Source: an uncultured bacterium | GTDB lineage: Bacteria > Omnitrophota > Omnitrophia > Omnitrophales > Aquincolibacteriaceae | DNA length: 64,000 nucleotides | Direction: 5' to 3' | NCBI GenBank assembly: GCA_964434115.1 | Contig: CAYSSX010000007.1 | Span: 18,734 to 82,733, forward strand | In this document: piece after piece, positions 3,001 to 54,000 of the stretch | How the letters are laid out: the number at the start of each line of letters is the position of its first letter | How positions within the stretch are numbered: the stretch's first letter is position 1 | Position numbers and translations under genes: made by a program | Notes under the pieces: generated by a model | Told to the model about the DNA's origin: nothing | The model's database searches: none | Seen by the model: only the letters and a program-made list of their open reading frames with translations

Positions 3001-6000
3001 CCAAGGCGATTGAAAACGCTGTCCGCTTGATGCAGGACATTAATGATGACGGCCAGATCAATGAAGCGGATATCAATATGATCCGTGACATGGCCAGCAT
3101 TTCACTTTTCCGCACGATTCCTCCGGGCGACTTAAACCGTGACGGCCTTACCGGAGATGTGGACGCTGAAATTGTACGTAACTTTCTGGACACCCTTTAC
3201 CGCGGCCTGAATGTGAGCGCTCAGGAACAAGCGCTTGCCGACATCAACCAGGATGGAGTCGTCAATTATGTTGACATCAACCTTCTCCTGAAAGCGAACG
3301 GATATTACCTGAAGAGCGAATTGACGGGGGACGGTTTTGTGAATCTTTTTGACCGCCTCAAGCTGGAAGGCTTCCTCCAGGCGCTTTACTCGGATGAGCT
3401 GATCACGCAGGAAGTCCTGAACCGGGCGGACCTTACGGGGCCTGATCAGAACGCGGATGGCGTGGGTGATAAAGACGGTAAGGTCCTTCAGGCGGACGAA
3501 GACCTCTTCATGAAGACCCTGCTTTATTACAAAGATGTCACCGATGACGGCAAGGTGGATGAAAAAGACCTGGCCATGATCAAAACCGCGCAAGAGCTCC
3601 TTGCTAAAGCCGACGGGATTCTTCCGAATCTGACTCAGATGAGCGGTATGGAAGTCTACCGCGCGCTCAAAGCGCTGGGCGATTTGGCTTACCGCGATCG
3701 CACCAAGCGCCTTGTCATTCAGTCCGTTCACGAGCAGAACTTTGACCAGAACACGAACGGGTGGGTACCTGACAATGTCGGCGCATGGAGCCGGGTGGCC
3801 GGTGAAATGGCGCAGACGGAATTCCGTGAGCAGCGCAGCACCACTTATTTTGAGGACGTCATTGAAGACGTTCAGATCAATGTGAAATTCAAATTCGATG
3901 GCCTTTACTGGAACGGCCAGCAGGGTGAAGGTATCGGCGGTTTGACCCTTCGCGAGGACGTCCAGACGGGAGATGCATACGAACTTCTTCTGGATGCCGC
4001 GCATTCTGCGATTTATCTCCGCAAGCGTGTCAACGGTATTTACAGCATCCTGGCCACGTCGGCAGTCAATTTCAGCGCTACCGACATGGATCAGATTACG
4101 GTCCGTTTGGTCAATGACCAGATCAGCGTCATTTTTAACGGCAACAAGCCTTTATTTACCGTTAAGGACGGCAGTTTTGAACGCGGCAATTTCGGGCTCT
4201 TTACGGAACCCGACAGTAAAGCGCGTTTTGACGACCTGAAAATTGAAACAGTCAATCTTGTGGAGTTGGAACCCGCCCTTGGGGTTCTGGAGCCTCTCAG
4301 CGTGAATGATTTCTCATCCGGCAATGCTTCGGAATGGATCCGTTCTCAGGATGGCGGTCAGTGGCTCGTGGAAGATGGAGCGCTGAAGCAGAAAAATTAC
4401 AGCGGCAATGAATATGAAATCTGGCATCAGCAGAATAATATTCAGGATTTTGTCTTTACCGCGGACCTTGCAATCCAGGGTCCCCCGAAAGCGCCCGAAG
4501 AAGAGACCTATGGCTTTGGCGGCGAGGGGGGGATGGGGTATGGAGGCGGATTGGGCGGTGGTATGGGCGGTGGAGGTTATGGAGGCGGCATGGGAGGAGG
4601 CGGTTATGGAGGCGGTGAAGGCGGTATGGGCGGTGGAGAAACGCCGACTCGCCGCGCCGGCATTATCTTCGCCAAAGAGAATGACAATAACTACTATCAG
4701 TTGGCCATTAATCCTGACGGCGGAAAAATGGAACTCTTCCTTGTCCGCGACGGCCAGACGACCCGCTTGGGGTATGGGATTATTCCTGTCCAGACAGATG
4801 AGCTGCCTTACCGGGTTGAAATCCGGCGCACAGGCGGACTTATCCGGATCCTTATCAACAGTGTAGAGCTGATCCGTACCCAGGATTTTAACCTCAGCCA
4901 GGGCAGTTTCGGTATTTACACCGAACCCAAGAGCCTGATGTCGATCGACAATATGAATTTCAGGAAAATGACGGCCATTCCCGACATCCAGCGCGATCTT
5001 ACGCTTACGAAAGATTTGAACGCCGATGGTCTTGTGAATGGTTCGGATTATGGGATTCTTGCTGATCTTAACAGCGTGACGTCAGCCGACTACAACAAAG
5101 ACAACATCCTTGATGATAAAGATGCCCAGCTTTTTGTGATTCTGGCCAACGGCCAGGCGGATGTTAACAAAGACGGGCTCGTGAATCAGATGGATAGGAC
5201 AGACCTGGCGGATGCTTATAACGGGCATGTGGACATTGACCAGGACGGGCTGGTTAACCAGAAGGATCTTGACCGTCTTAAGCTGATTCGGGCCCGCGTT
5301 TCGGATTGGGGCGGCAATCAACTGACCCTTGCGCTTTTTAGAAAGGCCAATATCAACAACGACGCCACGGGGGCCGTCAATCAGGAAGACATCTTCTCCT
5401 TGAAACTTGCGATCAGCCAGTACACCGAACTGGCCACCCTGGGCTTCCGGTGGACGGAATACCGCGCCATGACCCCGGCACAGAAAACAGAAGAAGTCAG
5501 AGTCTTTAATGAAGCTCATAAGAAGAGCTACTTTGTGGCACAGATTGACCTTATCGATTACATCTACGGCCGCGGCGATATGGACAGCAACGGCATTTCA
5601 AACGACCTCGACATCGCGATTATCCAGCAGGTCATTGATAAAACGCATACGGCTATCGACATTGAAAAGCTTGCGAATGCGGATCTGAACCGTGATGGCA
5701 AGTTCAGCCTCGAGGATTTGACTCTTTACTTCGACATCCTTCCTTATTATGTCGATGTCAACGGAGACAGTGTTGTCAATCACCTGGATTTTGTGGCTGT
5801 CCGGGAATCCCTGTTCCGTAAATACACGGCGGACCTGAATGGTGACGGTGCCGTCAATGAATTGGATATCGATTACCTCCACCAGCATATCCTTGGTCTT
5901 CAATCGATTGAAATGAATGGCAGCAAGGTTAAGGACCGCAGCAGTAATGTTACGCTCTCGGGCAATGAAGCCGTTGCCACGACGGATGCCTGGGTGGAGT

Positions 6001-9000
6001 ATCAGGTCGGCATCACAACGACAGGTAATTACGATGTGGGGCTGGAAGTAATCAATCATGAGAAGCTGGAACTGCCGCCGAATTATACGTATCAGTTCAA
6101 GGTCTTTGTGGATGGGACCGAAGTGGGCATCTTCAATGTTCTAGCTTCCGCGCAGGACGCGAAAAGAGGGGCGCTCAATCTTAACCTGAATCCTGGTAAT
6201 CATGTGATCCGTTTTGAGTGGATCAATGACAAAGTCAATGGACAGGACCGCTTTGAGACGGGCATCAGAATCCGTAAAATGTTCGTCAATACGGTCTATG
6301 ACCGCAACCAAAACGGTCAGGTCGACGCCGAAGATGTCAACTCGATTGAAAATACGATTCAGCTTGAAGTCGCGATTAAAGCTGCAGATCTAAACCATGA
6401 CGGCCTTGTCAATGATCTGGACCTTGCGAAATTCGACCAGACCCCCGTGGATCTTCAAGGCAATGCGCTTCTTAACATCCCGAACGACCGGAATCTCCTG
6501 CTGGAGTTTATCCGCCTTGAGAATGTCTGGCGCGCATCGGATGTTGACAAAAACGGCAAGCTTAATTCTAAAGATGCCAACCTCATTGATAATGCGTTGA
6601 GCATCATGAAAGATATTTCTGTGGAGACGTTCAAGGAAATTCTCCGCTACAAAGAACAGCAGAACAATTTCTATATCAATGATGTCTTCCGGCCTCAGCG
6701 CTACAATGAACCCAGCGACCGCGTGATCAATTTCGGGCTCGATTTTAACAATGTGAAAATCAAGATCGGGGATAAGTGGAGCGAAGCTGACCAGAATGAT
6801 GCGGAAAATAAAAAAGAAGACGCAACGGTTGTTCATATCGACGAACTCAAAAACCTGGGTGACGTGACGGTTATTATTGCGGCCCGGGCCCTAGACCTCG
6901 ATGCCGATCAAATCATCAAAGGGCAGGCGGAGAGAAAAATCGGCGCGCAGGGTTTTGGGTTTGATGATTACAAAGCTGTATCCAAGGTCATCGAACAGAC
7001 TCAAAACCGCGATTTCTATCTTCTGACTACGGCAGCTGACCTTGAAATGACGCCTGAGCTTCTGAAGCTTTTAGATACGAACAAGGACGGCATTTTTGAT
7101 ATTCGTGATCTTCCGGAAGGCATTGATCATAGAACCTTTGAACTTTTTGATGTGGATCGCAGCGGTAATCTCAGCATGGTGGACCGCGATCTTCTCGGAC
7201 GTTATGATGACAAAACAGGCGAATACATCGGCGTTCTCGGCGATGATAAAGTCACCGGCGCTTATTTCTTCCTGAACCGTATCCCTGAAGCCATCCGCCG
7301 TTTGTCGGATGTCAATGATGACGGACTCATTGACACGACCGATGTCGATATGCTGACGCGCGCGATGGGGCTTTTCCTCGGCGATAAGGACGGCGACGGC
7401 CTTACGGATGCGGACGAACTGGCCATGGGTCTTGACGTGGACGTCGACGGTGACGGCCTCAAAGGTGCTTTGGATCCAGACTCCGATAATGACGGGTTTT
7501 CGGACGGCGAAGAAATTGCCCGCGGTTTCAAAGCCAACGACGCCACAAGCAAGCCTCTCGCGGTCCTGGCGGACAGCGATGGCGACGGTATTCCGGATCT
7601 CAGCGATCCAAGCGCCTTTAAAGCGGACACCGACAGCGACGGTTTCTCAGACGGATGGGAAAAGGATCACGGCACCAACCCACTGGATAAAAACAGCAAA
7701 CCTGTCAACATTGTGACGCAACCGGATTCCGACGGTGACGGAATTCTTGACAGCGCGGAAACGGCACTTGGAACCAGCTCTGATAATCCGGATACCGACG
7801 GCGATGGATTTTCCGACAAGTGGGAAAAAGATCATAACACCAACCCGAAAGACGCCGAGTCTCATTCCGCACCCACGGCAACGGATAAGGACGGCGACGG
7901 GATCCTGGATGATGAAGAAGCGGCCCTGAAAACGGATCCTGAAAAAGCGGATTCAGACACCGACGGTTTCAGCGATAAAGAAGAACAGACAGCCGGGACT
8001 AACCCCTTGAGCGCAGTTTCCCGTCCTCAGCCGAAGGCTCTTGATACGGACGGTGATTCGGTTCCGGATGCCCTTGAAAGCGAATGGGGAACGGACAAGA
8101 CAAAAGTAGATACTGACGGCGATGGTTTTTCCGATGCGGAAGAAATTGCCCGCGGATCCAGCCCGCTCTCCAATCTTTCCTTCCCGAAAAAGACTTATGC
8201 GGATACGGATGGCGACGGCATTGAAGATCTGATTGAAATGTCTTATCGTGCCGATTTTGTGGCGGACAACGCGATTGATCAGAAAGACGTGGATCTTCTT
8301 AGGCAGAAAATCGCTGTTGCCGCGACCCTTACGCCGGCACAGATTGCTCCCTATGATCTTAATGGCGACCATGCCCTTAACGCGGTGGATCTGGACATTT
8401 TGAATGACACGATTACGGTTATGGCCGGTAACCCGCTTTCTAAAGTCATGAACACAGATCCCGCCAAGGCCGATTCCGACGGGGATGGGTTCAGCGATTG
8501 GGAAGAATTGAGCCGTTTCACGGATCCGGTTAACCAGCAGTCTTTCCCGGAAGTTTACAAAGCCGACCTTGACCACAACGATATCGTCGATGCCACCGAC
8601 CTTCAGATTTTGGACCGTGTGACGCGCATGCTGATGGGCGGGGACATCACAGGGGACGGCAAGCAGGATCAGAAAGATCTTGATGCCCTTGAAGCCTTGG
8701 GCGGATCCCAGATTGTTGAACTGGATGCGGCGCAGCGCGTGGATTCCAAAAATTACACGGTGACCGGGAGCACGCTTTACGCGACGCGCTCCAAAGATGA
8801 CGGCAATTTCGAAAATTTTATGCAGTACCGCGTGCAGACCTACGGCGGAAAATACACGATCGGTCTGGATGTCCGCAGCATGGATGCGATTTCACTCCCG
8901 GAAAACGGCTTTTATGAATTCGATGTCGTGGTCGACGGCCAGATGCGCGGACGCCTGCAGATCCGGGCCAGCAATATGCAGTACAACATGGAAACCATCC

Positions 9001-15000: not shown

Positions 15001-18000
15001 GCATTTCTAACGGCGGGGGCAGCTATTCGATCCGTGTTCCGTCTTCCGATAAATTCCAGGAAGCCTCAATCAAGGCGAACCTTAAAGCCGGACGCTACCA
15101 TGTCACCTTCACTTGGAAAAACGATGGCGATTCTAACACAGCACTTTCGGGAGATTTTACACAAGGTCCTGCGACTCTTGAAATTGACGGCATGGTGATT
15201 CGGAACAGTTCGATGGGGAAAAGCGGTGACCTGACTAAAGACGGGGTGACCGACGTGAAAGATGTTGTCCGCTGGATGACGGACAACCCTGACTCTGCCA
15301 ATGAGCAGACCCTGACTTACAACGGGTCTACCTATTATGTGGAGAAACTCGCGGATGGATCTTATTCCGTATTTGAACAAGCCAGCAAGCAGTTCTTTCA
15401 GAGTGTCCCCGGTAAAAATCTCGTCGATGTCTGGAACGTCAACAAGAATGGGAACGTAAAGCTTGTGATTCTGGAGGATGCGGATGGCAAACGCACTCTG
15501 GTCAACTATGTTCCTGAAGATGTGAATCTTGACGGCGCTGTTAACCAAGATGACTGGAATTATGAACTGGAGCAGCTTTCCTATTACGCTAAAACTTATG
15601 ACGGCCGCGACTACTTCAGCCGAGGGAGCGATAAATGGATTCAGAAGCAGGATGGGACCGTGGTAAACACGGCCTCTCCCGGCGACCCCATAACATACCG
15701 CTTTGATATTGAAAAAACGGGCTATTATGATTTGAACCTGCTGGCGCGTAATCTGTCCGCTGGAAGCGCGAATCAGTATTCTCGCATGTATCTTGAAATT
15801 GCGGGGTATGGGCAGATCCGGCTTGACGCCCGTGATGTTAATTACTCCAACGGGACGCTTAAGATTTTCCTCGAAAAGGGAACCCGGGACATTACGATCC
15901 GCTGGAAAGAAATTACGGAAGTCGGAGCGGCAGGGTTTGATCTCAAAAAAGTTTCTCTCACGGAAAGCCGGATTGATTACCAGGCTGATCTTGATGCCAA
16001 CGGCTTCCTGGATTCCCGTGATCTAGTCGCGCTTCAGGCCTTGATGCCTGAAACCACGAATTACGGCGCCGTGAATGTCAGCGGCACCAAGTACCTGGTC
16101 AACAAGCTTGCGGACGGCCGTTACCGTTTCGCGAGCGCGGGGGCTGGAATCACGAGCGCGGTTTGGGTGGACAGTGACGCCCAGGGCAAACTCATTAAAA
16201 TCAGCGGCACGGATTACATCATCAATAAATCCGCCGAAGGTTTGGTTTTCCTTGTGGAACGTCTGCCGCAGGACATGAACCTTGACGGCCTCGTGAATGA
16301 TCAGGATTTTGCGTTTCTGATCGATCAGAGCCAGCTCTCCCAGCAGACTTACCGCGCGATTGACTATTCCACACGCGATGAAAGTGTGACCTGGAAACTT
16401 GGCGCGGATTACAAGACGTTTGTTTCCACCGCCGATGACGCGAGCCTCGGTTTCTCATTCAATGCCAAGGAAGAAGGCTGGTATGACCTTGGTCTTATGC
16501 TGAAGGACGCCAGTGGAACTTCTCTTTCCGCGGATTACCGCTTTAACCTCCGCGTGATCGTGGATGGCGTGCATGTGTCCAATATCCGGGAAGTGCTGAG
16601 CAGTGTGACCTGGAAAGACGGCCGCGCTTCGGTTTACCTCAAGAAGGGGACGCACACCCTCGCGTTTATGTGGGACAACGATGAGGAAGTTGGCGACGCG
16701 GCAGGCATTGAAATCGGCGCGCTCAGCGTCCGGAACCGTCAGGTCAACAGTTATTCGGACGTGAACGGAGACGGCACGCTCAATCAGCTCGATTTTGACA
16801 AGCTGGCTGAAACCCTTCCGGATTCACGCGATATTCAAAAATTCGCCCTGAAGGGCCAGAATTTCATGGTCGTCGCAAATCATGCGGACGGCACCTACAC
16901 CTTTATCCGCGGCGTTGAAACGATCCGTTCCGCTCCGGACAAAACGGTGGTGATCGACAACCTTCTTTATGACGTCATTGTGAACCAGGAAGGCCGCGTT
17001 ATTTTGGCCGAGCAGCTCCGCGGGGACGTGAACGGCGACACCAACACCAATTCCGCGGACACGAGCATTATCAAATCCGCCTGGGGAACGACCCCGGACC
17101 AGGTCAAGACCGGCGACCAGTACTACACGGCCAAGAATTTCACGGCCGGCTGGGGGACGGTTCAGGTCGGGCAGTATGACCAGTCCAAAAAGTACTACGT
17201 GGATTATCTTTTCCAGACCGCCCGTGAAGACAATTACGAACTGAATTTTGAATTGAAGACTTCCAATGACGCGGGCCAGCCGAAAACGACCTGGGCTGTT
17301 TACATTGATGACATGGGTAAAATCTTCAAGACCATTGAAGTGCCGACGAATAAAACCCAGTATGAAATCGCGCAGCTTTTCGCATCGCTTGATGATGGTT
17401 TCCACCGCATCCGTCTTGAACTCCTCAGTCATCGTGACAACCTGACCGCCGAGATCGGTAAAGTTTCTCTGGGATTCCCGGAGTTCGATTCCCGCGCGGA
17501 CCAGAACCGTGACAACGTGGTGGATGTGAGCGATCTTGTGCCGGTCCTTGAAGACGCCTCGGATTCCTCTTTTGTGGAAGTGCTGAAGCTCAGCTCCGTG
17601 CAGTATTACTTCTATGAAAATCAAAACGGCAAATTGTTCCTGACCCGGGATGGTCAAACCGGCTTTGAGAGCAACGCCGCCCAGTCCGTGATTAACATCA
17701 GCGGAACGGATTACTGGATCAATAAGGACGCGCAGGGCAATCATGAACTGGTGAAGATTATTGCCGGGGACCTGAATAAGGATGCCGTGGTCGATGCCGC
17801 GGACCGCACCCTCATTCAAGACCAGGCTGGGGCCGGACGCCGTGAACCTGTGGCCACCGACCCGACAACCTTTACGGAAAAGAACCGCTTCGCCAAGAAC
17901 GGGGCGATTATGGAAGCCTTCCATACGACCAGCGACGGGACAGACCCGATCTACCTTGAATACCAGATGACCTTGGGCGGCAGCATTTATGAAATCAGTC

Positions 18001-39000: not shown

Positions 39001-42000
39001 ACACCCGTCCTCGCGAGGACGAGACCACCCAGAACCAGGGAAGCCAGGGTCTTGGCGACATCATGATGGGCATGCATGGCGATGACGAGATGGGCGGCGG
39101 TCAGGCGCCCGAAGTGGAACGTACGGGCGATCCGCTTCTGAAAGAAACTCGGCTTCTGACGATCCGCAAACGTCCTGACGGGGCCTTTGATATTTATTCC
39201 CCGGCAGACAATCAGGTTTATACCAGTGACAAGACCAACAAAACGGTGGTTCTCGGCAATTACATTAAGTATGACGTTATTGAGGACCCTGTGACCGGCC
39301 GGGTCCACCTTGAAGAGACAACCCGGACCATTTCCGCTCCGCGTATGGATCAGGTCATGGAAGTTTACGGTTCCAACTACGGGGTCGTGAAATCAACGGA
39401 CGGCCAAGGCCGTACGATTTACACGTTCTATGACGGCCTTCACACCTACGTGAGTGATCCGGTCACGAATACCGTCCGGCTCGGGGAGTTTATTAAGGCC
39501 TCCTATGACGATTATATGAAACGTGTGGAGGAGGGAACTCTGGATGAAGTGAAGGGACTCATTTATGACGTCCATGTCGACGCGAATACGGGCCGCATTT
39601 ATCTTACGGATCATAAAGAGACCACGGTCAAGACCCAAATCATTGAAATTGCTGGTTACTATTTCACAGTCAATCGTGACCAGGACAACAATGTCACGCT
39701 CAGCGATTTCGAAACCGCCGAGATGCTGATGACGCTGCCCCCGGATAAAACCAGCTTCCAGTTTGAAGGGGAGACCTACAACATAACCTATGACAGTACC
39801 ACCCAGTGGATTCGTCTTAACGGTCAGTCCGGCAACCGCTCACGCGATGTCCAGATCCTTAAGATCAATGGAAACTACTACCGTGTCACCCCGATGGGGA
39901 CCGATGAGTTCAAGTTCTTCTCCAATAATGAAACTTTCACTTCAAGCGCTCTGACCAAACAGGTCGTGCTTCAGGACGGCAAGACCTACAATGTGACTTC
40001 TGATCCTGTTTCCGGCGCGGTGCGGGCCGAGGAAGTTTATATCGACTCGGTCTCTTATGACGAGCTGTCCCTGATTCTCGGAAACAAACAGTACAACGTT
40101 GAAAAGATTGCGGACCATAAATACCGCTTCACGGATAAATCCGGGGCTGTTGTGGAAAGTGATCCCGTCACTCTCAAAGTCACGCTGAACAGCAAGGAAT
40201 ACGGAGTCATTGAACATCAGGACGGCACGGTGACGGTTGCTGCTCAGGACGATATCAGCAGCGCGACGTACCACAAAGTGATCCAAATTGGCGAAGATGT
40301 TTATGTGGTCCGTCAGACGGTAGACAAACGCTGGACTTTCACGAAGGACGATAAAGTTTATGTTTCCGACAAATCAGGAGAGATGGACCTGCAGGGTATT
40401 TTCTTCCGCGTCACCTACAATGAAACGACGCAGCAGGTGCGCGTGGCGGAGCGTGACCACCGCATTAGCTCCGCGGTGTCCATGCTTGAGATCCAGGAGC
40501 CTCAGGCGAAGCGTCGTATCAGCTTTGCCGGGAAGACTTATGAAATTAATTTTGACGTCGTGGACATTGTCGACAAGGAAACCTTAAGTGAAACCGTCCA
40601 CCGCCAGCGGCCCTTGTTTACGTTTGAAAACACGATCGACGGCACAAGCTATGAAAACCGCACCTATAAGTTCGGAGGCTCGGTCACGGCCTGTTATGAA
40701 AAACCGCCGAATTGCGACCGTTATGACATTGTCAGCACAGACCGCAATCAGTACACCATTGATCTTCCGGAAGTCACGCTGAAGCTTGAAAACTATCCTC
40801 GTGTATTCGCTTACGGCGTTCAGATTGATAACCGCCTGTTTTACGTGAAGGAATTCGGCACTCTGAGCCATCAGTTTTATTCCGAGAATGAAACTTATGA
40901 CTCCTACACCGTCACGACGCCGGGTGAAAACCCTGAAGATCCGCCCATTATTGAAGAGTTTGTCGAACTTCCCGACGGCCACGGCGGCATTGTAAAGTTC
41001 AAGATCGATTACGACAGATACTATAACCACGATGCAGCGCCCGCGGACTACTTCGGCGACCACCTGACCATGAATGTCATGGAAAAGGGAATGGCGGACA
41101 ACGTCCAGGTCAAGCCGAAGATTGAAGTCAACGTCGAAACCTTCCAGACATCGCGCTATTACTTCGCCGAGAAAGACGAAGTTTCCGGTGATTGGGCCGT
41201 GCGTGACCGGGACACGGGGAACGTTTACGATGTGTTTCAACAGGTCGAAGTTGATGATGAAACGTACCGCGTTTCACGCGACCCCTTCACGGGAGAGGTT
41301 TCCCTGACGGAGCAGCATGTGGTCAGCACGCGGGTTCCGGGGCGTTTGTCGGTTCGGGTGGGAGCCGACGCTGCCGGTTACAGCTACGATCTCCGTGCCG
41401 ACGGCCGCTTTGAGTTCAATGACGGCATCCAGACATTCTACAGCACCCGCGAAAACGGGAAGGTCAGCGTTAAGCTCGCCGATGGAAAGAATTATTTCAT
41501 CACCTATAACTCGGAAACCAAAGAACTGATTCTCAGCGAACAGTTTTCATTATCTTCCCCGGCCGGGACAGCCAAACTTAACCTGAAAGGAAAAGTTTAC
41601 AACTATACGTTAAATGCGGACGGAACCGTGACGTTGACCCGCGATCTTTTGACTTATCGCAGCCAGGGCACTATGGAATTGATTACGTCGCTCAAACACC
41701 CGGTTCAACGTCCTCTGACCCAGGAAGAAATTGACGAAAGCATGGGCGGAACAGGCGGCACAGGCGGTACGGTGGGCGGCGGCTCCGGCGAAATTGGCGG
41801 AGGCGGTACCTTGGGCGGCGGTCATGGCGGCGAAGGTGAAGGCGGTGAGGGCGGCATGGGAGGCCTCGGTGGTCTCGGCGGAACCGGCGGTACGGGCGGT
41901 ACGGGCGGAACAGGCGGTTCGATGGGCGGAGGCGGCACTTTGGGTGGTCATATGGGCGAAGGGGGAATGGTGGTCGGTGCCCTTGGACCCGTGAAGTGGG

Positions 42001-45000
42001 AATACTCGGGTGCTGTTGTTACAAAGCCGTATGATGTGTCTTTCAATCCATTGACCGGTGAAATCAGCGTTCAGGAGCGTCAGGTTCCCGTGTCTCCGAT
42101 TGACTATACGCGGATCATGGGCATTTCCCAGAAACTGGCCCCGCTTTCAGCGGACTTTAAAACGTATCTCGACAGCCAGAACCTTTATCAGACAGAGGAC
42201 TTAACCGCGGATTCTCCTCAGCGCCGCCTTTATTCGGAATATATCCACAATCCGGCGAACGGATATTCCTCGCAGTTTATCAAAGATTTTGACACGTTTG
42301 TTTTCACGTACACCCAGTACCCATATCCTTGGGAATCCTCACTGGAAACGTCCTACAACTATACGAGCGGAATTCCCGGGTCGATTTCAGGCGGCGCCGG
42401 TGGATCTACTCCGAACGGTCTCCTTTCCGGCAATACCAGCATGGAAGGCGCCTACGATATTCTCTTTGACAGCCCGAACGGCAATATGTCGACCCGCGGC
42501 AATCTGCAGTATATGGCCATGCAGCAGCTTCAGCTTTATCAGGATGAACGCCAGATTTTCCATCCTTGGGTTCTTGGCGTGCACCGCGTTCTGGAACCGA
42601 AATACAACAATGACGCTGCCGTGACTCTGGACAGCGGTCCTTTTATTCTTTTTGCCGGAGACGCCAACAATAACTACCGTAACCAGGGCGTAACGGTAAA
42701 TGGTTTTGCTTACAACATCACCTTTGACGCGGCGACCAAAACCCCGACGCTCACGGAAGTGAACGAGTATATGCTGGCACGCGAAGACCAGGCCCTGATT
42801 CTTGAATATCATATGAAAGACGCCGGCAATAGCGAGACCGGAGTGGAGTACAACCTTTTTGACGGAACCTTTACGAACATGGGGCTCTTCAAGGGTTCTA
42901 TCCAGCAGCGTAAGGCCCTCGGTACCCAGCACGATTACGCGAATCCCGCGAACGAGTGGAAAACGGTCACGCTGAAGCAGATCCGTGAAGACGGTCTCTT
43001 TAATTACAGCCCAGCCAACAAGACTTTTGTGGTTCAGGGCAAGACCTACCGGATTTTTGAGAATCCGCTGACCCATGAATTTCTGATTGCGGCGCAAGAA
43101 ACGCCGCCGGCGATTGAAATTCTGCAGACTGTGGAGATCAACGATCATTTGTATCAGATCAAAAAAGGAACCGGCGACCGGGTCATTTTTGTGGATGAAG
43201 CAGGTGAAGAGACCATGAGCGACCTGGACGGCAAGACCGTTCAATTTGAAGACAGCGGTTTGACCTTTGATATTTCCCGTAACATCCTGACCGGCCAGTG
43301 GACGATCAGTGAAACCATACAGCAAAGCCATTTTGGAATCGGCGCTGTGGTGGACGGCTGGACCGATTTTATTCAGGCCGGGCACCGGACAAGCCGCATT
43401 AGTTTCCATCCCGTGAATAACCTCGGGGATACACGCACTTTTGACATTCCTGATTATGTCGGCGGCGTGACCTTCATTAATAGTGCTGTTGTCGAAGGGG
43501 CCCTTGGAAATATCTATGATCTGTTTGTCTTTAAGACCGCCTTTGACCAGCTTTGGTTTACCGACGGCCGCGGCGGAGTCACGGTCAAGCCCGATCAGAT
43601 GAACCAGATCGTCTTGGACGGCCAGCGCTATAACGTTCTTTACAACAAAGTCGACAACACGGTCATGCTTGAAAAATACCGTATGGAAATGCCGTCCTTC
43701 TCAAGCATCAAGAGCCAGGGGCATTTCTACACGGTCAACGATAAGGCTGGAAGCTATACCGAAGTCATTGGCGCCGGAAACCGTAAGATCACATGGGTTC
43801 AGATTTCCTGCAATGAAGAACGCTGCACGGATGTGGACACAACGCCGTCCTATCTTCCGATTGAAACCTTGAGCAATCCTTTCCGTAACAGTGTTGTTCT
43901 GGATGACGGCATTGACCGCGATTTGATTATTGACCCCAGAAACCCGAAGAATGTGGACTTGGCGCCGGACAACATTCAAAGTTTTGATCTTCCGGATCTC
44001 AAGCTCAAGGATCGCTATTTCCAGGTCCTCAAGAATGCCGACGGTAGCTATACCTTCCGTGAAACCTATGTGCCGAAGTCTGAGCGCTATACCAGCGACA
44101 AAACCACCGGCGAGGTCAACATCGACAACGTCGTCTATAAGTTGACCGTCGATGCAGTGAGCGGGAAGGTCACGCTTGACCGCAAAGACCCGGTGGTCAG
44201 CACTCACGTCAACGGCCAGTTCCTGGTCGTTCAGGATGCCGTCTATGAAGTCGTGGACAACGGCGACAGCACTTACACTTTTGCCAACATGCAGGTGATC
44301 GGCCTGACCTTCCGCAGCGAGCCGCTGACTCAGGTCCCGACAGTCAAAATCAATGAACGCATCTATACGATTCTCAAGGACGCAGCGGGGAAGATTTCCC
44401 TGCAGGAACAATTTATCGAGCATTCTGTCGAGAATGATTCCCTTATCATGGATGATGTTTTCTACCGGGTCTATGCCATCAAGGATAAGCAGGGAAAAAT
44501 CCGCGCCTGGTTCTCTGATGGGCGTGACGCGTATCTTTCAGAGCCCTTGATTCCTCTCGACTCCGTGAGCGGCCAGCAGAAATTTTACCGCGCCCGCGTC
44601 ACAATCAAGGGTGAAGCGTTCTTTGTGGACATTGACATTGAAGATATGAATGCCACGACCGAAGTCACAGAATACCTCGCGGCCAAAACCAAGGACGATG
44701 CCGGAGAAGAATTTGTGGACCCCATTTTTGGAGGAGGGATTTTTGACTGGGGATTCCTGGGAGGCCTTGGCAGCGGCGGGGGCTTGGGCGGCGATGGTGA
44801 AGATGGCGGTGACTATGGGGACCTTGGCGGTTTGGGAGGCCTTGGCGGTGACGGGGGCCTCGGCGGTATGGGCGGCCTTGGCGGTTCTGGCGGTGAAGGC
44901 GGTCTCGGAGGTATGGGAGGCATGGGCGGTCTTGGCGGCATGGGAGGCGGCGATTTGGGCGGTCTCTTTGGCGGCAGCGGCGGCGATTTCGGCGGCCTTG

Positions 45001-48000
45001 GAGACCTTTCAGGATTCTGTGAGAATGCGGACTTCTGCTATGGCATGGGCGGTTACAATCCTGCGCCCCAGCCCAAGAATGTCAAGGTGACCTTGAACAA
45101 GATCAAAGGAAAAGTAACGCGTATCCGGACCGTTTATGAAGACTCCGGGGAAGCTCAGAAGATCCGTGTTGAAGATCAGGATGTTTATGTGGTCAAGGAA
45201 AACAAGGACTTCCTGAACTATGGCGGCCGCATTGAAGACCAGAACTCAAAGTATGAACTCAATCCGAACGCGGGAAGCTACCGCTTCACAACGCGCGGTG
45301 AAACGTACTGGTCCGACCCTTCCGACAAAACCGTTAAGATCGGAACGAAATTAACCTACCGCGTTGATGTCGACAAGGTGACCGGAGCCGTGACTCTGCG
45401 TGAGAATGACACCAAGAGTCTCGGTGTTCAGGTGCTTGAAATTGACGGCCGCTACTACACGGGTGTTTATGATCCGGAGAATTCCAGCCGCCAGTTCACC
45501 TTCAATGATGGTTTCGGCCAGTACATCAGCACCATGGATACGTTCGGGTTCTATGAGGAAGACGGCACGCTATTCTCTTCGCCATCCCTGTACGGCAACA
45601 ACCGTCAGAATTACGCCCGCATTGAGTCCAAAGATGTTCTGACCACCAAAGGCCCGCGTGAGTTAGGTTCCAAATACACGACCAACGAGCTCAATTATCA
45701 GCTGGACATTACAGACCAGGGTTTCTACCGGGTCGGCTTATCCGCGAAAGTACTCTCGGATCTTGAGGATGCGATTTACAAAGACAATGCCAAGGGACCG
45801 AGCCTTGCTCTGGATCATGCCTTCAGTGTTTATCTGGATGGAAAATTTTATGGGACTTTCTACCTTCAGCCGAATGACAAGGAATTTCAGAACGCGGGCC
45901 TGAAAGTCCTGATTGATAAAGGCATTCATGACCTTAAGTTTGTCTGGAATGTTCCGGAACTTATGGATAAGACCAAGGAGATTTTTGGCGACATCAACAT
46001 TCAGATCCGCGATGTGTTCGCGGTCAAGGAAGAGGTCTTCCAGGCGGACTTGAACGGTGACTTGGTGGTCGATGCTGCGGACCGAGCGATCTTGGAAGGT
46101 CTTATCACTGAAAACCGTACTCCTGAAAAGGGCGAAGCGCTGGATGCTTCCAAACAATACATAGATATGTTCGGCGTCCGGTATGAGGCTGTCCGCAACG
46201 AAGAAGGAAAATGGTCTTTTGTGAACGGCGGTACGGTTTACACTGAAGACAGCAATGGTCAGATTACGGTCAATGGCGTCCTGTTCAACGTGAAGACCGA
46301 TGCCTTGTCACGGTCGATGGCCTGGGATTTTGCGGAAAAGCTTGAAAACGGAGACACTCTTTATCCGTCCAATACCGGAAATGCCGGCCAGAGTTTTGAA
46401 TTCCTGGGTAAACATTTCACCGTTTGGGCCATTAAAACAGGTGCTGACAACAAGCTTCGTTTCCATCTCTTTGACGGCGAAACGGAATACATTTCCGAGC
46501 CTGGCGACATGTGGGGGAATTGGGGCGGCGGCGATGACGATTATCCGGGCATGGGAATGGGCGGGATGGGGATGGGCGGCTATGGCAGTTCGTTCAATTT
46601 CCCTGACCCCAAGGTTGCCATTAACGGGAAAGTTTATAAGGTTTCTGAAGTCATGGGCAAGAAAGCCACTGTCCGGCTTGAAGAGCAGATGAAGCGCAGC
46701 GAGCTTCTCGCGGAAGAAGTGATCGAAGCCAATGGCTTCCGCTACCGGATCACTCAGGATGCGGACCACTTCTACCTTAACAACGGCACCAAAATTTATA
46801 CCGTAGACAAGACCGCGTCCCGGGTGAACCTTGACGGTTACATTTACGATATCGAATTTATTTATCCTGAAAACAACAATCAGGGAGGCTACTACGGCGG
46901 TGATGAAGGCGATGATCCTTTTGGAATGGGCGGATACTTCGGCCCCGGCGGCTCCATGGGCGGCGGCTACGGCGGCACCCAGCAGCAGCCGAAGCCGATT
47001 GGCCTGACACTGAAGGAAGTACTGCCGGACGTCCGGCCGGTTTTCCTGCAGACGATCGAAATCGCGGACCATGTTTTGAGCGTGGATGTCTCTGAGGATG
47101 ATCCAAACTCCTTCCTTTTCAGTGATGGGACTAATCTCTTCCTCAGTGATCCCGTGACGATGAAAGTTGTGATTTACGGTGCTTCCTACGACATTACTGT
47201 GGATGGCGGCGGTGTTTCCTTGACGGAAACGTCCTACTCGATTGTGAAGTCCGGAGAGCATGAAGTAACGATTAATGGGACAACGTACCTGGTCCAGTCT
47301 ATTGGTAACGGCCAGTATGTTCTTTCCACGCCGCCGGTCACTTTCACCAGTGATGTGGATGAGACCGTTGTGATTGACGGCACCACCTACCACGTGATGA
47401 AGGATCCTGCCGGGCGTGTGTTCCTTTTGAAAACGCGGCCTGTTGAAAGCGTCATTGTCAATGTCCGGGTGATCTTTGCCGGCGGCCGTCCGTATCAGGT
47501 GACGGCCAACAATGCCGTGCCCGGAACGTGGGTCTTTAAAGACGGCAATAAAACTTACACGAGCCAGGCTTCCGGACGCCTTGATATTGACGGCGTCCTC
47601 TATGATGTTTCTTATGATGCGGTCAAAGACGTTCTGACCGTCGGAAAAAAGCAAGGCATTACGGCCGATCTGAATGTCGACGGCGTGCTGAATGAGACGG
47701 ATCTTAACCTGATCAAGGATCACTGGGGCGCCCGTGACATTCCGGTCCAGAACGGGTCCGCTTTTGTCGCTAAAGGCGCAGACGTCACGGTTTCAGGGCA
47801 ATCGGCTCAGGCCCGGGGCGGCACGTCGCGCGGCGAGTACTGGGCGGATTATGAATTCAGCATCGATGCTTCGGGCAGCTATGAAATAGGCCTGGAAGTT
47901 CTGAAGGGCAACGATGTTCATATGGAAACCTTCCGCTTCGACGTCTTCGTCGATGATATGGAAACGCCCGCGGCCCAGCTTGAAATGACGGCATCAACGA

Positions 48001-51000
48001 CAACGGCCCAACTCGCAGCACTGGCGCGCACCTTTAGTGCGGGGAATCACCGCATCCGCTTTACTTGGCTGAATCCTGTCACGAATGCCGCGATGAACAT
48101 TGTGAGGGTGTCGGTCCGGGACACGCGCTATTGGGATCTTGCGGATCTTGATAAGGACGGCGTGATCGGCCTTGGTGATGTTTCCACCTATCTTAATCAG
48201 GCCTCCCGGAGCGATTACGCGAAGCAGATTTCCTTGAACAATAAGCGCTATTACATGGATGGCCGTCCGGAAGGCCGCATCCGCATCACCGATGGCACTA
48301 AGAACTATGATAGCGATGAAGCCGGGCACGAGATAACGGTGGACGGGAAGAAATATTACATCGTTCATGAGGGCCAGGAACCGGTTGCCCTGCGTCTGGT
48401 TGAAGCACTTCGGATTGACCTGAATCAGGACGGCCTTTTCAATGAAGCGGATGACAAGATTTTTGCCGCGGCTTTTGCTAGCCATCAGCATGATATTCTC
48501 CCTGCGGAATCCAGCAATACCCAGTATTTCAAAGGCACGGAAGCTAATGTCGATGCCGCCTACATCGTTTCCCGCGGAGCCACAGGGTCCGGCAGCATGG
48601 GCTACGGCGGTTTTGGAAGCGGAGATCCGACGATCAGCATTACGGAGACCGTCGCGCAGGCCGGGACTTACCGCATCGGACTTGCGGCCCGCAATTACAG
48701 CGGCCAGGATAACAAGCCGAATTGGGACGGCTGGAAATTCTCCAACAACATGACGAATGCGCGCTTTACGGCAGAAGGCGGATTTGCGGCCTCGATCAAC
48801 GGACAAGGATTCGCGTTGTCGAAGGATGGCCTTAGCATTGACGCCAGCCAAAGTAATTACCTGACTCTGGACTATCTGCTCACCAGCGGCTTCAATGGCA
48901 AGATTTATTGGAAACGTGACGGTGATACGGATTTCAATGAAGCCCGCAGCCTTGACTTCTCTCTTTGGGCTAATGGTGAAAGCAAGGAATACTCCCTCTA
49001 CATGAAGGACAATGCCCTTTGGAACGGCATCATCCGTGAAATCAAGCTTGTCCCGACGGATGAAGCGACTTCAAATTTCAATATCCGGGGTATCTCGTTC
49101 CGTAAAACTTCAGATGGTCCGAGCTTAACGGGCTGGGGTGTTTACGGCCCGCAGGAAGAAGGTTACTTTAAATACCGTGTGGTAGTGGATGGCCAGAGTA
49201 AGGGGACGTTTGAGGTTGCGTGGGATAAAACAGGGCACAATGAAAATTACCTGAATGTCGAACTTTCGGCCGGCCAGCACGACATCAAGATTATCGAAAT
49301 GAACAAGTACGGCTACGACTACACCTTCCAGGCTGTTTTCCAGGCTGAGGTTTCGAAATCCTTTATCCGGAAAATTGACACACGTGCTGATTTTAACGGA
49401 GACGGCCTTGTGAACCAGGCCGATCAGGCGGTCTTTGGATCTGAGCATGCCGGTTTCATCGATGAAAATGTTCTCAGCCTTGGCGGTCGTTACCTCTCCG
49501 TAACCGAGAACGGCGACGGCACGGTTACATTTCTCCGGGGCGCTCAGGATGGACAGGTGTATGTGACCGATGCGGCAACAGGACAAATCATGATCGGCGA
49601 CGTCCGCTTTGATGTCTGGAAAGACCCCAGCACAGGGGATGGCGTGGTCAGTATGCCGTTCCGCGACAGCTCTCACGTCTGGGACCAGGTTATCCAACTG
49701 GAAGGCCGGAACCTCGCGGTTCTTCACGAAACCGATGGAGCCTTCCGTTTTATGGAATATGAAAAAGCAAACGGGAAAAGCTACCGGTCCAACATGGAAG
49801 GAAGCCTGGTCGAAATCGAAGGGGTTCTTTACAACATTGAATACAATGAATCCCTGCGTCAGCTCCGTCTTGTGGAAATCACCCATGATATCAAGGCCAG
49901 CGGCTGGGAGTACGCGAAAGTGGGCCAGGACACGATCTGGTACAAAGCGGCTCCGGATGGCACCCCCATTTTCAAATTTGAGAGCGAATACCTGCGCGCC
50001 GACCAAGAAACCGGGTATCTAATTTTTAAGGGCGCCCGTTACAAAATCATGAAAGATCGTCTGGACCGCCTCAGCCTTATGGAGATTCAGACGGGGGACT
50101 TGAATGAAGACGGTACTCTTGATTTCGCGGATCAGGAATTGATGCTTGAATCTTTGCCTTCACAGGTTCCGTATCATCTGGATGCGACCACGGCTTCGAA
50201 ATTCAACCGTTTTGTCGAAGGCCAAAACGGAGACATGATGTACTCGACCTATCAGGGCTATCCGAACTATGCCAGTTATTACCTTGATTATGAAGTGACG
50301 CTGGACACGCCGAAATCCCAGGACATCGCGGCTTATGATGTCGGCCTTAGCCTGAAAAGCTATGACGGCATGACGATCCCTGAAAATTATGAATATAAAT
50401 TTGAAATCCTCGTGGATGGTATCAAGGCTGGTGTTTTGACCATTCTGGGCGATGAACAGAAATACCAAAGAGAATCGCTCCGCCTTAATCTTCCGGACGG
50501 CTTCCACACAGTCCGTTTCCGCTGGATGAACCCTGTTTCCGATGTGAGCGTCGAAATCAACGAGGCTTTTATTGATGAAGTGGACTCCCATCTTGGAGCC
50601 AATCTTGTGCAGTCGGATGAAACCCTTCCCGAGATTCCTGTGAAGGTCGGCACGCTCAATGAAAAAGACCGCTCAATCGTCGAAATGAAGATCGGTGACC
50701 AAACTTACCGAATCGCTCGTGATGAAGCCGGTTTTGGCTATAGCGGCACCCAGCCGGTCATTGTTTATGCCGTGGTGGATGAGCACACGGGCAAAGTGAT
50801 CAAAACCGGCTACACGGGAACCTGGGATGCCCCGGCCTCTGATTTCCAGGACATGGTCACAGCCATGCCGGAAGGCCGCATGGTGGTGGCCGCAACCTTT
50901 GGAGGCGCGCCTTACAGCTACTCCGGAACCAATGAACTTTTCCGTGCTTTTGAAGCTCTCGGTGCTTCAGATTTCCGCAACATCAGCCAGGGCGACAGCT

Positions 51001-54000
51001 GGGTATTCGTGGGCCGCAAGGGCGCCCGATCAAGCAGCGTGACGGAATCTCTAGCCCGTGAACAGGACAGTAAATCAAGGACTGCGGTCAGCATTGTGAC
51101 CCGCGCGGGTTCGGACAAAGACCGCATTCAGGTCAATGACCGCGACTATGAATTGTTTCAGGAAAAATTTAACAGCTCGAAGGAATATCAGAAGATCAAG
51201 CTGGACGCCGTGGACTATTACCTCAGCCGCACGGGGACGGAGGCCTATACCCTGACTGATGGAACCACGGTCTGGGACAGTGTTATGGTCGACGGGGTAG
51301 CCGAGCTGACGGTGAACGGTAAATCCTATCATGTAGAGCAGGATGCCATCGGCCGCTTTGAAATGGTGGAAGCCATCCCCGGAGATCTTAACCAGGACGG
51401 AATTATTGATAACCAGGACGCCGCGCTTTTGACCGGCTATCTGGGTTCCGCCAATTTTACTCAGTCCGGCCGTAATGTGATAGCGACCAGCGGAGTTTTC
51501 CAGTACGGTGACGAGCCCGATAACTTCTATATCAGCGCTTGGGGCGGTTACGGCGGTTATGGCGGCGGTATGGGGATGGGCATGGGAATGGGCGGCGAAG
51601 AGGGCGGGTCCGGCGGCCGCGGGAATTATGACACACTTGCCGGCTTTAAGACCGAAGACTCCCTTGTGACGCTAGGCAAGAGAATGCCCATGGCCTTTGA
51701 TGTCGAAGTTTCCGAAGACGGCTACTACGCAGCGGGACTTGAGGCCCGGAATTATTTCCAGGCACTCGCTGACTGGAAGATTGAAGTGGATGTCTATGTG
51801 GATGATGAATATGTCCGTCAGGCCGAATTCAATTTTGACGCCACGCGCGCGGATTACGAAATCCAGAAAACCAATCTCTTCCTTAAAAAAGGCAAGCACC
51901 GGATCTATTTTGTGGTCACTGATGAATTCGGTGACGGTAATCGTGAAGTCCTCGGCCAGGCGCCTGACCTCACCGGCAAACCGCTTTCGGTCGGTTCGTC
52001 TCTGGAAGTGAAACAGTTTGTCTTTACTGACTCCTCCTACAATCGCCAAGCGGACATTAACCGTGACGGTAAAATTGACGGGGGCGACCAGCAAATGCTT
52101 GCGGATATTATCGGCGTCAGCGGTCGCATTGTCAGCCGTCTGAAGGCTGAAGCCGCGCTTGTGATCCAGATTGAGAACCGTTTCTTTAGCGTGGAAATCG
52201 CGGGTGAGCAGGTCACTTTCCGTAATGGTGCTGAGGTCATTACGCCCGATGCTGAAGGCCGTTTCGCGATAGAAGGCCGTAAGTATCAGGTGAGTCGTAA
52301 TGCCGCGGGCGATGTTGGAATTTCTGGGGTCAGCGAAGTTTATGCCTTGATTGATCCTTCCGCCTCGGCCGAAACGAGCCAGGTTCAGGCCGATTCCTTT
52401 GTGATGATCGGCGACCATTACTGGAACATTCAGAAGCTTGGCGACGGGCATTTCCGTTTCTTTGACGATGCGGGCCAGGAAGCGACTTCTGCTGCCGGAA
52501 CAGGCGCGGATGAAGTGACCCTCCTTGGCGTGAAGTACAAAGTTTTTGGCACGGATCCGAAAGCCCTCACGCTTGAAGAGTTCCACATTGAAAGCGTTAA
52601 GACCGGTGACCTTTTGATCCGTCTCGGCGGTGTGGATTACCGCGTATTGGCGGAGAACGGCAACTGGCGCTTTACGAACCTGGCCAATGCCAATCAGACC
52701 TACCTTTCCGCGAGCGGCAACATCACGCTCCCAAGCGGTACTTACAGCGTGGTCTGGAGTGAAACGCTTAAGGAACTCGTGATCGGCAATCACCCGATTA
52801 TTTCCCAGGGCCTTGCCAAACAGGGTGTGGAACTCGGCGATAAGCTGTATGAAATCACGGTCAACGGCAATACGTCACTCACCCTCTCGGGTGTTGACGG
52901 GCCGTGGACTTCAACGGTGTTTGCGCCGGATGCAACGGTTACGGTCAACGGCCAGCTCTACGTGATTCAGCAAAACGCGGAAGGCCGTTACGTCTTCACA
53001 GGCCGCATTCACAGTTCGCCGGTGGTGGGACCGGTTCTTCTTTTCAACGGCGACCTGTTTATGGTCGAGCAGGTGGGCAATCAGTTTATTCTCCGCGATC
53101 ACGGCCGTCTCTATAAGAGCGGCGCGTATGTGAATGACGCAGTGGTCACCGATTCGTCTCCCGCGGGCGACATTCAGGGAGGTCAGGACACGACCCCGCG
53201 CGACACGATTACCAACACCTCGAACAATGCCCCGATCACCGTGAACCCGGCAGGGACGACCGTGACCGGTTCTCCGATCACCAGTGACAGCGGCAATACA
53301 AACTACACAGGCACGGGGATCGATGCCGCTCATCCGGACATCCCCAGCCAGGGCGCGAGCGCGGCGGATATTCCTTCCGCGGGAACCGCGGCCGCTTACC
53401 CGCAGGTTGCGGATCAAGGGTCCGTGCTCGACACCATTATTTCCGACAAGGTTTTGGGGTCCGGAGTTTCAATTGACGGAGTGACGTCGAATGTTGTGGT
53501 TTCCAAGACTGCCGCTGACGCTCAGCACTTGGCTGTGCTCAGTCAGAATGGAACTTTCGAGGCCGCAAACGGTGAAAGTTACACCTGGGCTTGCGACTAC
53601 CAGGGCGCAGGGGATACCTGCTACCTTCAGATCCGTAACTCTTTGAACGCCTTGGTCTATAGCGAAAGCAAGGCGGGCGTCACCACCAATTCTCTTTTCG
53701 CGAAACCTTTCCTGGCAGGAAGCATTCCGTACGCGGTCCGCTATACGCCGTCCAACAATACGCTTTCGCTTTCGGCGCTGGGCAAGACAGGCACCTTCAC
53801 GATCGCGGGGCAGGGTGACTTCCGCTTTGGTTATGTGGAGTACACGGAAGCGTCACAGAATAAATTCATCTTTAAAATTGAGAAGACCGACGGTACCCAA
53901 CTTTACACGCAGGAAGGCCTTGTGCCGCCGGCGCCGAGCTTTGTGCAGGTTTACAACGCGGGAACGGAAAGCTTCACGGTCAATTTCAACAAGGATTCTT

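Follow-up and report, generated by a model that had tools for sequence, protein, structure and literature searches.

Eleven glycine-rich segments in one giant reading frame

We analyzed a 64,000-nucleotide (nt) stretch of DNA, called the window below, from an uncultured bacterium of the Omnitrophota (contig CAYSSX010000007.1, positions 18,734 to 82,733). The window is filled by a single host gene on the plus strand, a stop-free frame 3 of 21,332 codons (nt 3-63998) that is open at both ends. The host protein has at least 21,332 amino acids (aa), and both of its ends lie beyond the window. Eleven in-frame segments of this protein are rich in glycine and enriched in methionine. The first-pass annotation had listed eleven such places, and a Gly-rich, Met-enriched segment was found within a few bases of each. 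We confirmed that the segments are real, in frame, and far beyond chance.

All eleven segments are encoded on the plus strand. Segment 1 (aa 1501-1549, nt 4503-4649) consists of 49 aa in a (GGGX/GGGGX)n pattern, where X is M, Y, L, or E, and sits in a loop of a DUF1080-like domain that we call copy B. Segment 2 (aa 10100-10126, nt 30300-30380; EDPGIFQMPGMGGMYPGYEGSGGGYQS) lies in a loop of another such domain, copy C, at a position other than that of the loop in copy B. The remaining segments are in a region of short β-hairpin units or, in the case of segments 10 and 11, ahead of the first strand of the following β-sandwich. Segment 3 (aa 12383-12402, nt 37149-37208; YQGYGGMEGMGGGEGGVN) is a loop in the β-hairpin repeat region, and segment 4 (aa 12432-12448, nt 37296-37346; YECGGGEEGMGGGMCGS) is a Gly/Met loop between Cys12434 and Cys12446. 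Segment 5 (aa 13013-13036, nt 39039-39110; GSQGLGDIMMGMHGDDEMGGGQAP) is the weakest of the set, with about one-third Gly and five Met residues. Segment 6 (aa 13911-13992, nt 41733-41978) has 82 residues, is rich in Gly, Thr, Met, and Glu, and includes a (GGX)9 run. The longest, segment 7 (aa 14910-15004, nt 44730-45014), has 95 residues and includes (GGX)13, with X being L, M, D, S, or E. Segment 8 (aa 15514-15531, nt 46542-46595; YPGMGMGGMGMGGYGSSF) is inside a β-hairpin repeat unit and is followed by segment 9 (aa 15639-15661, nt 46917-46985; PFGMGGYFGPGGSMGGGYGGTQQ). Segment 10 (aa 16192-16208, nt 48576-48626; GATGSGSMGYGGFGSGD) is located after a dockerin-like module and before the β-sandwich that follows, and segment 11 (aa 17177-17209, nt 51531-51629; WGGYGGYGGGMGMGMGMGGEEGGSGGRGNY) is likewise at a dockerin-to-sandwich junction.

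In the pooled segments (391 aa), Gly makes up 53.7% of the residues and Met 8.4%, where the background of Met is 1.65%. They have no Lys, one Arg, and three His residues, and they are depleted in Ala, Pro, Asn, Gln, Val, and Ile. We counted 11 windows with at least 6 Gly per 12 residues, compared with a mean of 2.5 and a maximum of 7 in 200 shuffles. G-M-G triplets occur 22 times where 2.8 are expected, so that Met has the top enrichment of all residues in the GxG context. Triple-Met clusters are also in excess (5 observed, 0.4 expected) and are confined to segments 2, 8, and 11. The whole protein has 13 low-entropy regions, none of them Pro-rich, and 9 of these are the Gly-rich segments. Of the remaining four, two are dockerin Ca-loop stretches and two are rich in Thr, Ala, and Gly. 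Thr/Ala/Gly-rich low-complexity stretches at aa 18339-18364 and 19672-19709 (nt 55017-55094 and 59016-59129) are of a type unlike the Gly/Met segments.

A sequence search of the PDB with segments 1 and 7 returned chance-level matches alone (collagen IX and a linker of ADRM1). Pfam searches of pieces of about 850 aa around each segment assigned the Gly-rich parts to no family and matched little in the flanking sequence. The Ca-binding nonapeptides of RTX proteins (GGxGxDx[hydrophobic]x) were considered as a candidate and rejected, with no motif match across the whole protein.

The segments are also repetitive at the DNA level. The motif GGCGGTATGGGCGG, with up to two mismatches allowed, has 16 copies against 0.45 expected; all are on the plus strand and inside segments. 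The long segments are quasi-repeats phased at 9 nt (NNN-GGN-GGN), with copies that are 60 to 87% identical and spacings that are all multiples of 3. The longest perfect direct repeat in segment DNA measures 12 nt. The DNA is not homopolymeric, and all four Gly codons are used, in proportions similar to those in the rest of the gene (inside/outside the segments: GGC, 54/49%; GGT, 20/19%; GGA, 17/19%; GGG, 8/13%). Judged by its sequence, such quasi-repeat DNA is consistent with segments that grew by duplicating units in frame and then diverged. The first-pass annotation had flagged these repeats as potential slippage hot spots. The quasi-repeat character stands, but copies so degenerate are at best moderate slippage substrates today. 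We rejected the idea that Met stems from one expanded hexanucleotide, given the many different contexts and lineages in which it is found.

Lectin-like domains, predicted disorder, and cysteine pairs

A profile search identified five diverged copies of a DUF1080/CBM66-like β-sandwich in the window, all on the plus strand, with a mutual identity of 16 to 27%. Copy B (aa 1429-1656, nt 4287-4970), which hosts segment 1, was recognized by profile match, AlphaFold2 modeling, and Foldseek. Copy C (aa 9983-10185, nt 29949-30557), which hosts segment 2, was recognized by paralog alignment and profile match. The other copies are at aa 717-898, 1247-1416, and 6164-6321 (nt 2151-2696, 3741-4250, and 18492-18965). 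The Pfam match to PF06439 reached 45.4 bits against a cut-off of 26.8. Pfam saw the DUF1080-like copies weakly in long chunks and not at all in one 849-aa piece. A BLAST search of the whole protein against itself was uninformative, because the paralogs share just 20 to 33% identity.

An alignment of four DUF1080-like copies placed segments 1 and 2 as insertions in two different loops, with segment 1 being an insertion relative to three paralogs. The aligned sequences of both interrupted domains have the conserved W...G, FR..D..NYY, and G..G cores of a concanavalin-like β-sandwich. We modeled copy B with AlphaFold2 from a 26-sequence alignment. The model is a β-sandwich with a predicted local distance difference test score (pLDDT) of 81 and a predicted template modeling score (pTM) of 0.76. 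Segment 1 is a coil with a pLDDT of 44 to 54 and no secondary structure, and it is flanked by two confident strands. The best Foldseek matches of the model were the levan-binding CBM66 structures 4b1m and 4azz, with E values of 4.5e-10 to 1.3e-9 and target template modeling (TM) scores of 0.77 to 0.83. Other concanavalin-like domains and the DUF1080 structures 3imm, 4jqt, and 8v31 were matched as well. In the known CBM66 and DUF1080 structures, the loops are short at the places at which copies B and C bear Gly-rich inserts of 49 and about 27 aa. The earlier proposal that two segments interrupt lectin-like DUF1080 domains is borne out by the paralog alignment, by the ortholog alignments described below, and by the model and its CBM66/DUF1080 fold match.

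We also modeled aa 14770-15140 around segment 7. Segment 7 has a pLDDT of 25 to 34 and no secondary structure, and the flanking hairpins have a pLDDT of about 80. This model was built on an alignment of two sequences, and its flanks are moderately confident. AlphaFold2 thus gave both segments 1 and 7 very low confidence without secondary structure, and we regard them as predicted disordered regions. The segments may act as flexible hinges, as the first-pass annotation proposed, or as entropic springs or weakly sticky loops.

The host protein has 14 Cys in 21,332 residues, and all of them fall into seven close pairs (C-x4 to C-x11-C), at aa 11166/11173, 12434/12446, 13564/13571, 14603/14608, 15006/15012, 17864/17873, and 18788/18799. 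The close spacing suggests small disulfide-stapled loops. Two of the seven pairs are conserved in P0151, a relative described below. Two pairs adjoin Gly-rich segments. Cys12434 and Cys12446 (nt 37302-37340) bracket the GGGEEGMGGGM of segment 4, and Cys15006-x5-Cys15012 (nt 45018-45038, plus strand) follows directly after segment 7. Both are lineage-specific: the former is not in the orthologous loci L002 or L004, the latter is not in L001 or L002, and the inserts themselves are missing from these orthologs as well. Judged by position, the lineage-specific pairs may staple the base of new loops.

Inserts in relatives and the class of the host protein

A HMMER search of 1.84 billion representative proteins returned 226 homologs, including fragments collinear with the window. 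P0002 and P0001 cover aa 1-1711 at 42 to 48% identity, and P0002 reaches at least 2,327 aa further upstream. P0009 covers aa 4115-6606 (33.5% identity), P0021 covers aa 7864-11985 (47%), P0052 and P0044 cover parts of aa 9860-10831 (46% and 36.5%), and P0048 covers aa 16544-17710 (31%). A word-index search added P0151, a partial hypothetical protein at NCBI from a Candidatus Omnitrophica metagenome-assembled genome (MAG), with 41.5% identity to aa 13243-16025 over 2,486 aligned positions. Scanning GTDB genomes with the window/P0151 alignment, we found four Omnitrophota MAG loci; L002 is collinear with aa 9836-17663, L003 with aa 12223-17663, and L004 with aa 11645-14631. Every collinear ortholog (31 to 48% identity) comes from a Candidatus Omnitrophota/Omnitrophica MAG. 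The closest relatives are fragments only 31 to 48% identical, and therefore the lineage of the window lies outside the searched collections.

Some searches came back empty. Single-protein-query scans with aa 15050-15499 for close relatives found nothing in genome contigs or metagenome contigs. A further metagenome scan, based on an alignment of the region around segment 1, was empty as well, and therefore one ortholog alone is comparable for segment 1. The word-indexed protein search was empty for aa 15005-16000 and for aa 1240-1860 with the insert removed, though HMMER homologs exist for these regions; negatives of this search are unreliable for proteins of this kind.

We compared what the relatives carry at each site. 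Segment 1 is absent from P0001. At the site of segment 2, seven homologs have between 0 and about 30 extra residues: P0044 has GMPYGYSMGGYDQPGMMGETY, P0021 has GDYYGDGFGSSDYDGEYDGSGY, L002 has GAAGAGSGAGAAGMPYQG, and P0052, P0109, and P0055 have none. At the site of segment 3, L002 has YSGEPGMAGMGGGPSYY and L004 has GGAMPGEEGE. Different Gly/Ala-rich loops occupy the site of segment 4 in L002 and L004. The site of segment 5 is deleted in L002, and L004 has a stretch of similar length that is rich in Met, Gly, Tyr, and Glu. Segments 6 to 9 are absent from P0151/L001, where the flanks are well aligned. At the site of segment 6, L002 has about 14 aa, whereas the insert of L004 (MHFC01000017.1, Omnitrophica GWA2_52_8) measures about 85 aa, is rich in Gly, Thr, Ala, and Met, and lies at aa ~2300-2400 of the locus translation. 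The L004 insert suggests that expansion at this hot spot took place in two or more lineages, or else in an ancestor that they shared. In place of segment 7, L002 has about 40 inserted aa that are rich in Gly, Glu, Asp, and Met; like L001, it lacks segment 9. The site of segment 10 holds GEGAMGFMMGFGGGEEG in L002 and EMPGMMGDMNF in P0089. Segment 11 is absent from P0048 and L002.

In total, four segments have no counterpart in any ortholog that covers the site, and at each of the other seven sites one or more relatives (L002, L004, P0021, P0044, or P0089) have a Gly/Met/Tyr/Ala-rich insert that is shorter or different. Insert length at the shared sites ranges from 0 to 95 aa across orthologs. 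The pooled ortholog inserts (357 aa) contain 26% Gly, 7.8% Met, no Lys, and 0.6% Arg, and their host proteins contain 1.1 to 1.6% Met. Because the ortholog inserts share the Met enrichment and the exclusion of Lys and Arg, the compositional bias recurs independently. These alignments show that the insert positions are conserved hot spots, at which lengths and sequences are free and a compositional rule recurs in independent lineages. The giant genes of relatives do have Gly/Met/Tyr/Ala-rich inserts of their own at seven of the sites; the first-pass annotation had thought such linkers worth looking for. Its word "linkers" fits a few segments at most (two, 10 and 11, lie at a junction); most are lineage-variable insertions at conserved hot spots. 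The present genome is the extreme case, with 10 Gly-rich windows compared with 2 in L002 over the stretch that L002 covers. In 35 other dockerin-type fragments (about 59,000 aa), there is no Gly-rich window, compared with 11 here, although short-read assemblies may break at such places.

On sequence grounds, the window encodes part of a giant surface protein of the Omnitrophota dockerin type. Pfam found Dockerin_1, TSP3_bac, EF-hand, DUF1080, and ILEI domains in the window protein, and long stretches are unannotated. Dockerin_1 (PF00404) had E values down to 4e-71 per 5,000-aa chunk, PF18884 had 7e-35, and ILEI (PF15711) had 1.5e-14; EF-hand_7 was also found. The protein thus has many dockerin type I/EF-hand and bacterial TSP3 repeats, accessory DUF1080 and ILEI domains, and Omnitrophota relatives. 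This architecture matches the "dockerin-type giant proteins" of Omnitrophota of West-Roberts et al. 2023 (bioRxiv 10.1101/2023.11.21.568195), a class with lengths of at least 30,000 aa; the host protein has at least 21,332 aa, and its ends lie beyond the window. Common to both are Dockerin_1, EF-hand, and bacterial TSP3 repeats, DUF1080, ILEI, β-rich unannotated stretches, and CBM35-like sandwiches beside dockerin helices. Glycine, methionine, linkers, and disorder are mentioned neither in that preprint (10.1101/2023.11.21.568195) nor in a 2026 preprint on complete Omnitrophota genomes.

A large share of the unannotated sequence of the host protein is a recurrent β-hairpin unit of about 50 to 60 aa (F.DG...Y.S.P....V...G..Y.V..D..TG.V.L.E), which is found between aa ~3000 and 17500, for example at nt 36300-38100 and 39000-39600. 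This unit may correspond to the antiparallel β-helix or ladder structures predicted by West-Roberts et al. The giant gene also contains 21 antisense stop-free stretches of 300 to 662 codons, such as those at 56778-58763, 16827-18431, and 58923-60485 on the minus strand. These are probably shadow open reading frames that arise from the codon composition of the sense strand.

Possible origin and role of the segments

We judge it somewhat probable that the segments are disordered Gly-rich expansion segments, placed where a giant Ca-binding extracellular dockerin-type protein is permissive, in its surface loops and at its module junctions. In this scenario, they would be gained and lost by in-frame duplication and deletion of short GGN-GGN-NNN codon units and would then diverge. 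Selection would exclude Lys and Arg from them and favor Met, Leu, Tyr, and Phe between the Gly spacers. The result would be an acidic composition of the "sticker and spacer" type of elastomeric, weakly cohesive disordered proteins. The function would be generic. The segments may add flexibility, reach, or entropic-spring elasticity to a rigid, β-rich, Ca-stiffened rod, and they may also give floppy, weakly hydrophobic loops to the lectin-like domains. Because the orthologs do without most of the segments, we do not regard them as specific catalytic or binding sites.

Several points weigh against this reading. Its basis is confined to sequence comparison and AlphaFold2 models. The low confidence for segment 7 is weak evidence of disorder, since the alignment had two sequences. 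Ortholog coverage is thin, with one to three independent relatives per site. That orthologs lack most of the segments would be just as expected if the segments had no function whatever. Conversely, a motif like G-M-x-G-M/F-G-G-G is kept at aa 12383 and 16192 in an ortholog of about 33 to 43% identity, and such conservation could mean a more specific role.

The main rival of disordered expansion with a generic role is neutrality, to which we assign a real though clearly smaller chance. The segments would then be functionless by-products of slippage or unequal recombination, tolerated in the surface loops of a very large protein in which selection on each loop is weak. The 9-nt quasi-repeat DNA would be expected in that case, as would the finding that the segments are absent or very different in orthologs at every site. 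The lack of Gly-rich windows in the 35 other dockerin-type fragments (~59,000 aa) would mean that the segments are dispensable for the family. However, neutrality does not readily account for the same composition at independent sites and in independent lineages, with Met at about 7.8 to 8.4% compared with 1.1 to 1.65% (4- to 7-fold) and with Lys and Arg excluded. Met also occurs in many local contexts, not in one expanded unit. The copies have diverged, synonymous Gly codons included, which argues that the segments have persisted, and two lineage-specific Cys pairs stand exactly at the base of two segments. An error of sequencing or assembly is hardly credible. Low-complexity, GC-rich DNA is error-prone, but no stop interrupts the frame anywhere in the 64 kb, the eleven segments included, and all length differences from orthologs are in-frame gaps in the protein alignments. 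Three other Omnitrophota lineages, in independent assemblies, have Gly/Met-rich inserts at the same positions, and the segment DNA is neither homopolymeric nor limited to one Gly codon. The artifactual or frame-breaking segments that the first-pass annotation named as its refutation are therefore contradicted by the data.

Three more specific roles have less in their favor. Binding of Cu(I) or Ag(I) by Met thioethers, as in the "Mets" motifs of Ctr1 and the Met-rich loop within the cupredoxin sandwich of CueO, would make the segments a device for metal sequestering or sensing at the cell surface. The protein is extracellular, Met-rich loops are known from multicopper oxidases, and segments 2, 5, 8, and 11 have MxM, MxxM, or triple-Met clusters (MPGMGGM, MMGMHGDDEM, MGMGGMGM, MGMGMGM). 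We nevertheless consider this role improbable. Such clusters occur in only 3 or 4 of the 11 segments, and the two longest segments have mostly Leu, Thr, Asp, and Glu between the Gly residues. The Met-rich loop of CueO has about 30% Met, a density well above the 8% of the segments. His is nearly absent (3 in 391 aa), orthologs lack the segments, and Pfam found no copper-handling domain in 21,332 aa. With no other hint of metal handling in the gene, the earlier suggestion of Cu/Ag binding or redox sensing is not supported. A still smaller chance attaches to folded bundles of polyglycine II or polyproline II (PPII) helices that serve as receptor-binding or spacer domains, as in the snow-flea antifreeze protein and the polyglycine II sandwich of phage gp38. 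The (GGX)9 and (GGX)13 runs put Gly at two-thirds of positions, which is sterically compatible with packing; bundles of Gly-rich PPII helices form an emerging class of folds, and the PPII conformation is populated by Gly/Met tails (PMC12571646). By inspection of the sequences alone, however, no regular helix-turn-helix segmentation is apparent. The AlphaFold2 models show no compact structure (pLDDT of 25 to 34 for segment 7, from a shallow alignment, and 44 to 54 for segment 1), orthologs have 0 to 85 aa of unrelated sequence at the same sites, and the PDB search found no sequence relative. We place slightly lower again the idea that the Gly-Gly stretches are processing sites, cleaved for example by C39 "double-glycine" peptidase domains that would cut the giant precursor into pieces. 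C39 peptidase-like domains have been reported in dockerin-type and Archaeovorin giants, where propeptide cleavage has been proposed (10.1101/2023.11.21.568195). The segments are also predicted to be exposed and flexible. However, C39 recognition requires a leader helix upstream of GG, and such a helix is not evident here. Pfam found no C39 domain within the window, the sites are absent in orthologs, and cleavage at the two segments inside a folded sandwich would split the domain.

By composition, the nearest sequences are the Gly/Met tails of GroEL/mHsp60 and abductin; the likeness would be one of analogy, with no homology to either. Both are flexible and PPII-biased (PMC12571646; PMC11978752), and abductin has been cited as a PPII-forming protein that resembles the Gly/Met tails (PMC12571646). 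The chaperonin tails consist nearly only of Gly and Met and are flexible and weakly hydrophobic; the window has comparable stretches in GGMGGM, MGGMGMGG, and GGLGGMGGMGGLGGMGGG. However, those tails are short, conserved, and C-terminal, and they lie inside a cytosolic chaperonin cage. The window segments are internal, extracellular, up to 95 aa long, and not conserved, and they also contain Leu, Tyr, Thr, Asp, and Glu. None of the segments is a C-terminal (GGM)n tail of the GroEL type, and GGMGGM occurs only once in the window. With abductin, from the hinge ligament of bivalves, and with GGX elastomers such as spider-silk GGX and lamprin GGLGY, the segments share a high Gly content and regularly spaced Met, Leu, Phe, or Tyr. 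There are four GG[L/M]GGMGG motifs, all in segment 7. Abductin is an animal matrix protein of tandem Gly/Met/Phe decapeptides, whereas the window stretches are short acidic inserts in a bacterial multidomain protein, so that the likeness is compositional only. Tandem decapeptides do not make up most of the host protein, the rest of which consists of ordinary folded domains. The CueO-type loop is similar in that it is a Met/Gly-rich, partly disordered insertion in a β-sandwich loop of an exported bacterial protein, and some segments have MxM or MxxM. Unlike CueO and Ctr1, the segments have hardly any His and a far lower Met density, most lack Met clusters, and the gene has no copper-site domain.

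These analogies lead to a bolder proposal, which we hold to be rather unlikely, although better placed than the metal, bundle, and processing roles. The (GGX)n/(GGGX)n inserts could be bacterial counterparts of abductin or of titin PEVK-type entropic springs. They would be PPII-biased and weakly self-associating Gly/Met/Leu/Tyr elements, would lend reversible extensibility to a rod-like surface tether whose gene is longer than the 64-kb window, would put sticky, floppy loops on its lectin domains, and would have lengths tuned in each lineage by in-frame gain and loss of units at fixed hot spots.

The advance made here is modest and descriptive, and it does not amount to a new system. The segments are an unusual variant of familiar low-complexity disordered inserts, in a class of giant genes that has already been described. 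Few known genes are as long as the giant genes of Omnitrophota, the bulk of whose sequence is without annotation. In the present protein, the low-complexity content is dominated by one class, which is acidic and Gly-rich, has Met, Leu, or Tyr, and lacks basic residues. If the segments are neutral, they would provide a measure of how much loop expansion is tolerated, and they would be a warning for assembly and gene calling at such loci. If they act as springs or sticky loops, they would be relevant to the way in which a very long extracellular tether makes contact with a host or prey cell and keeps hold of it, and the spring reading, if true, would introduce a design principle that is new for giant adhesins of prokaryotes.

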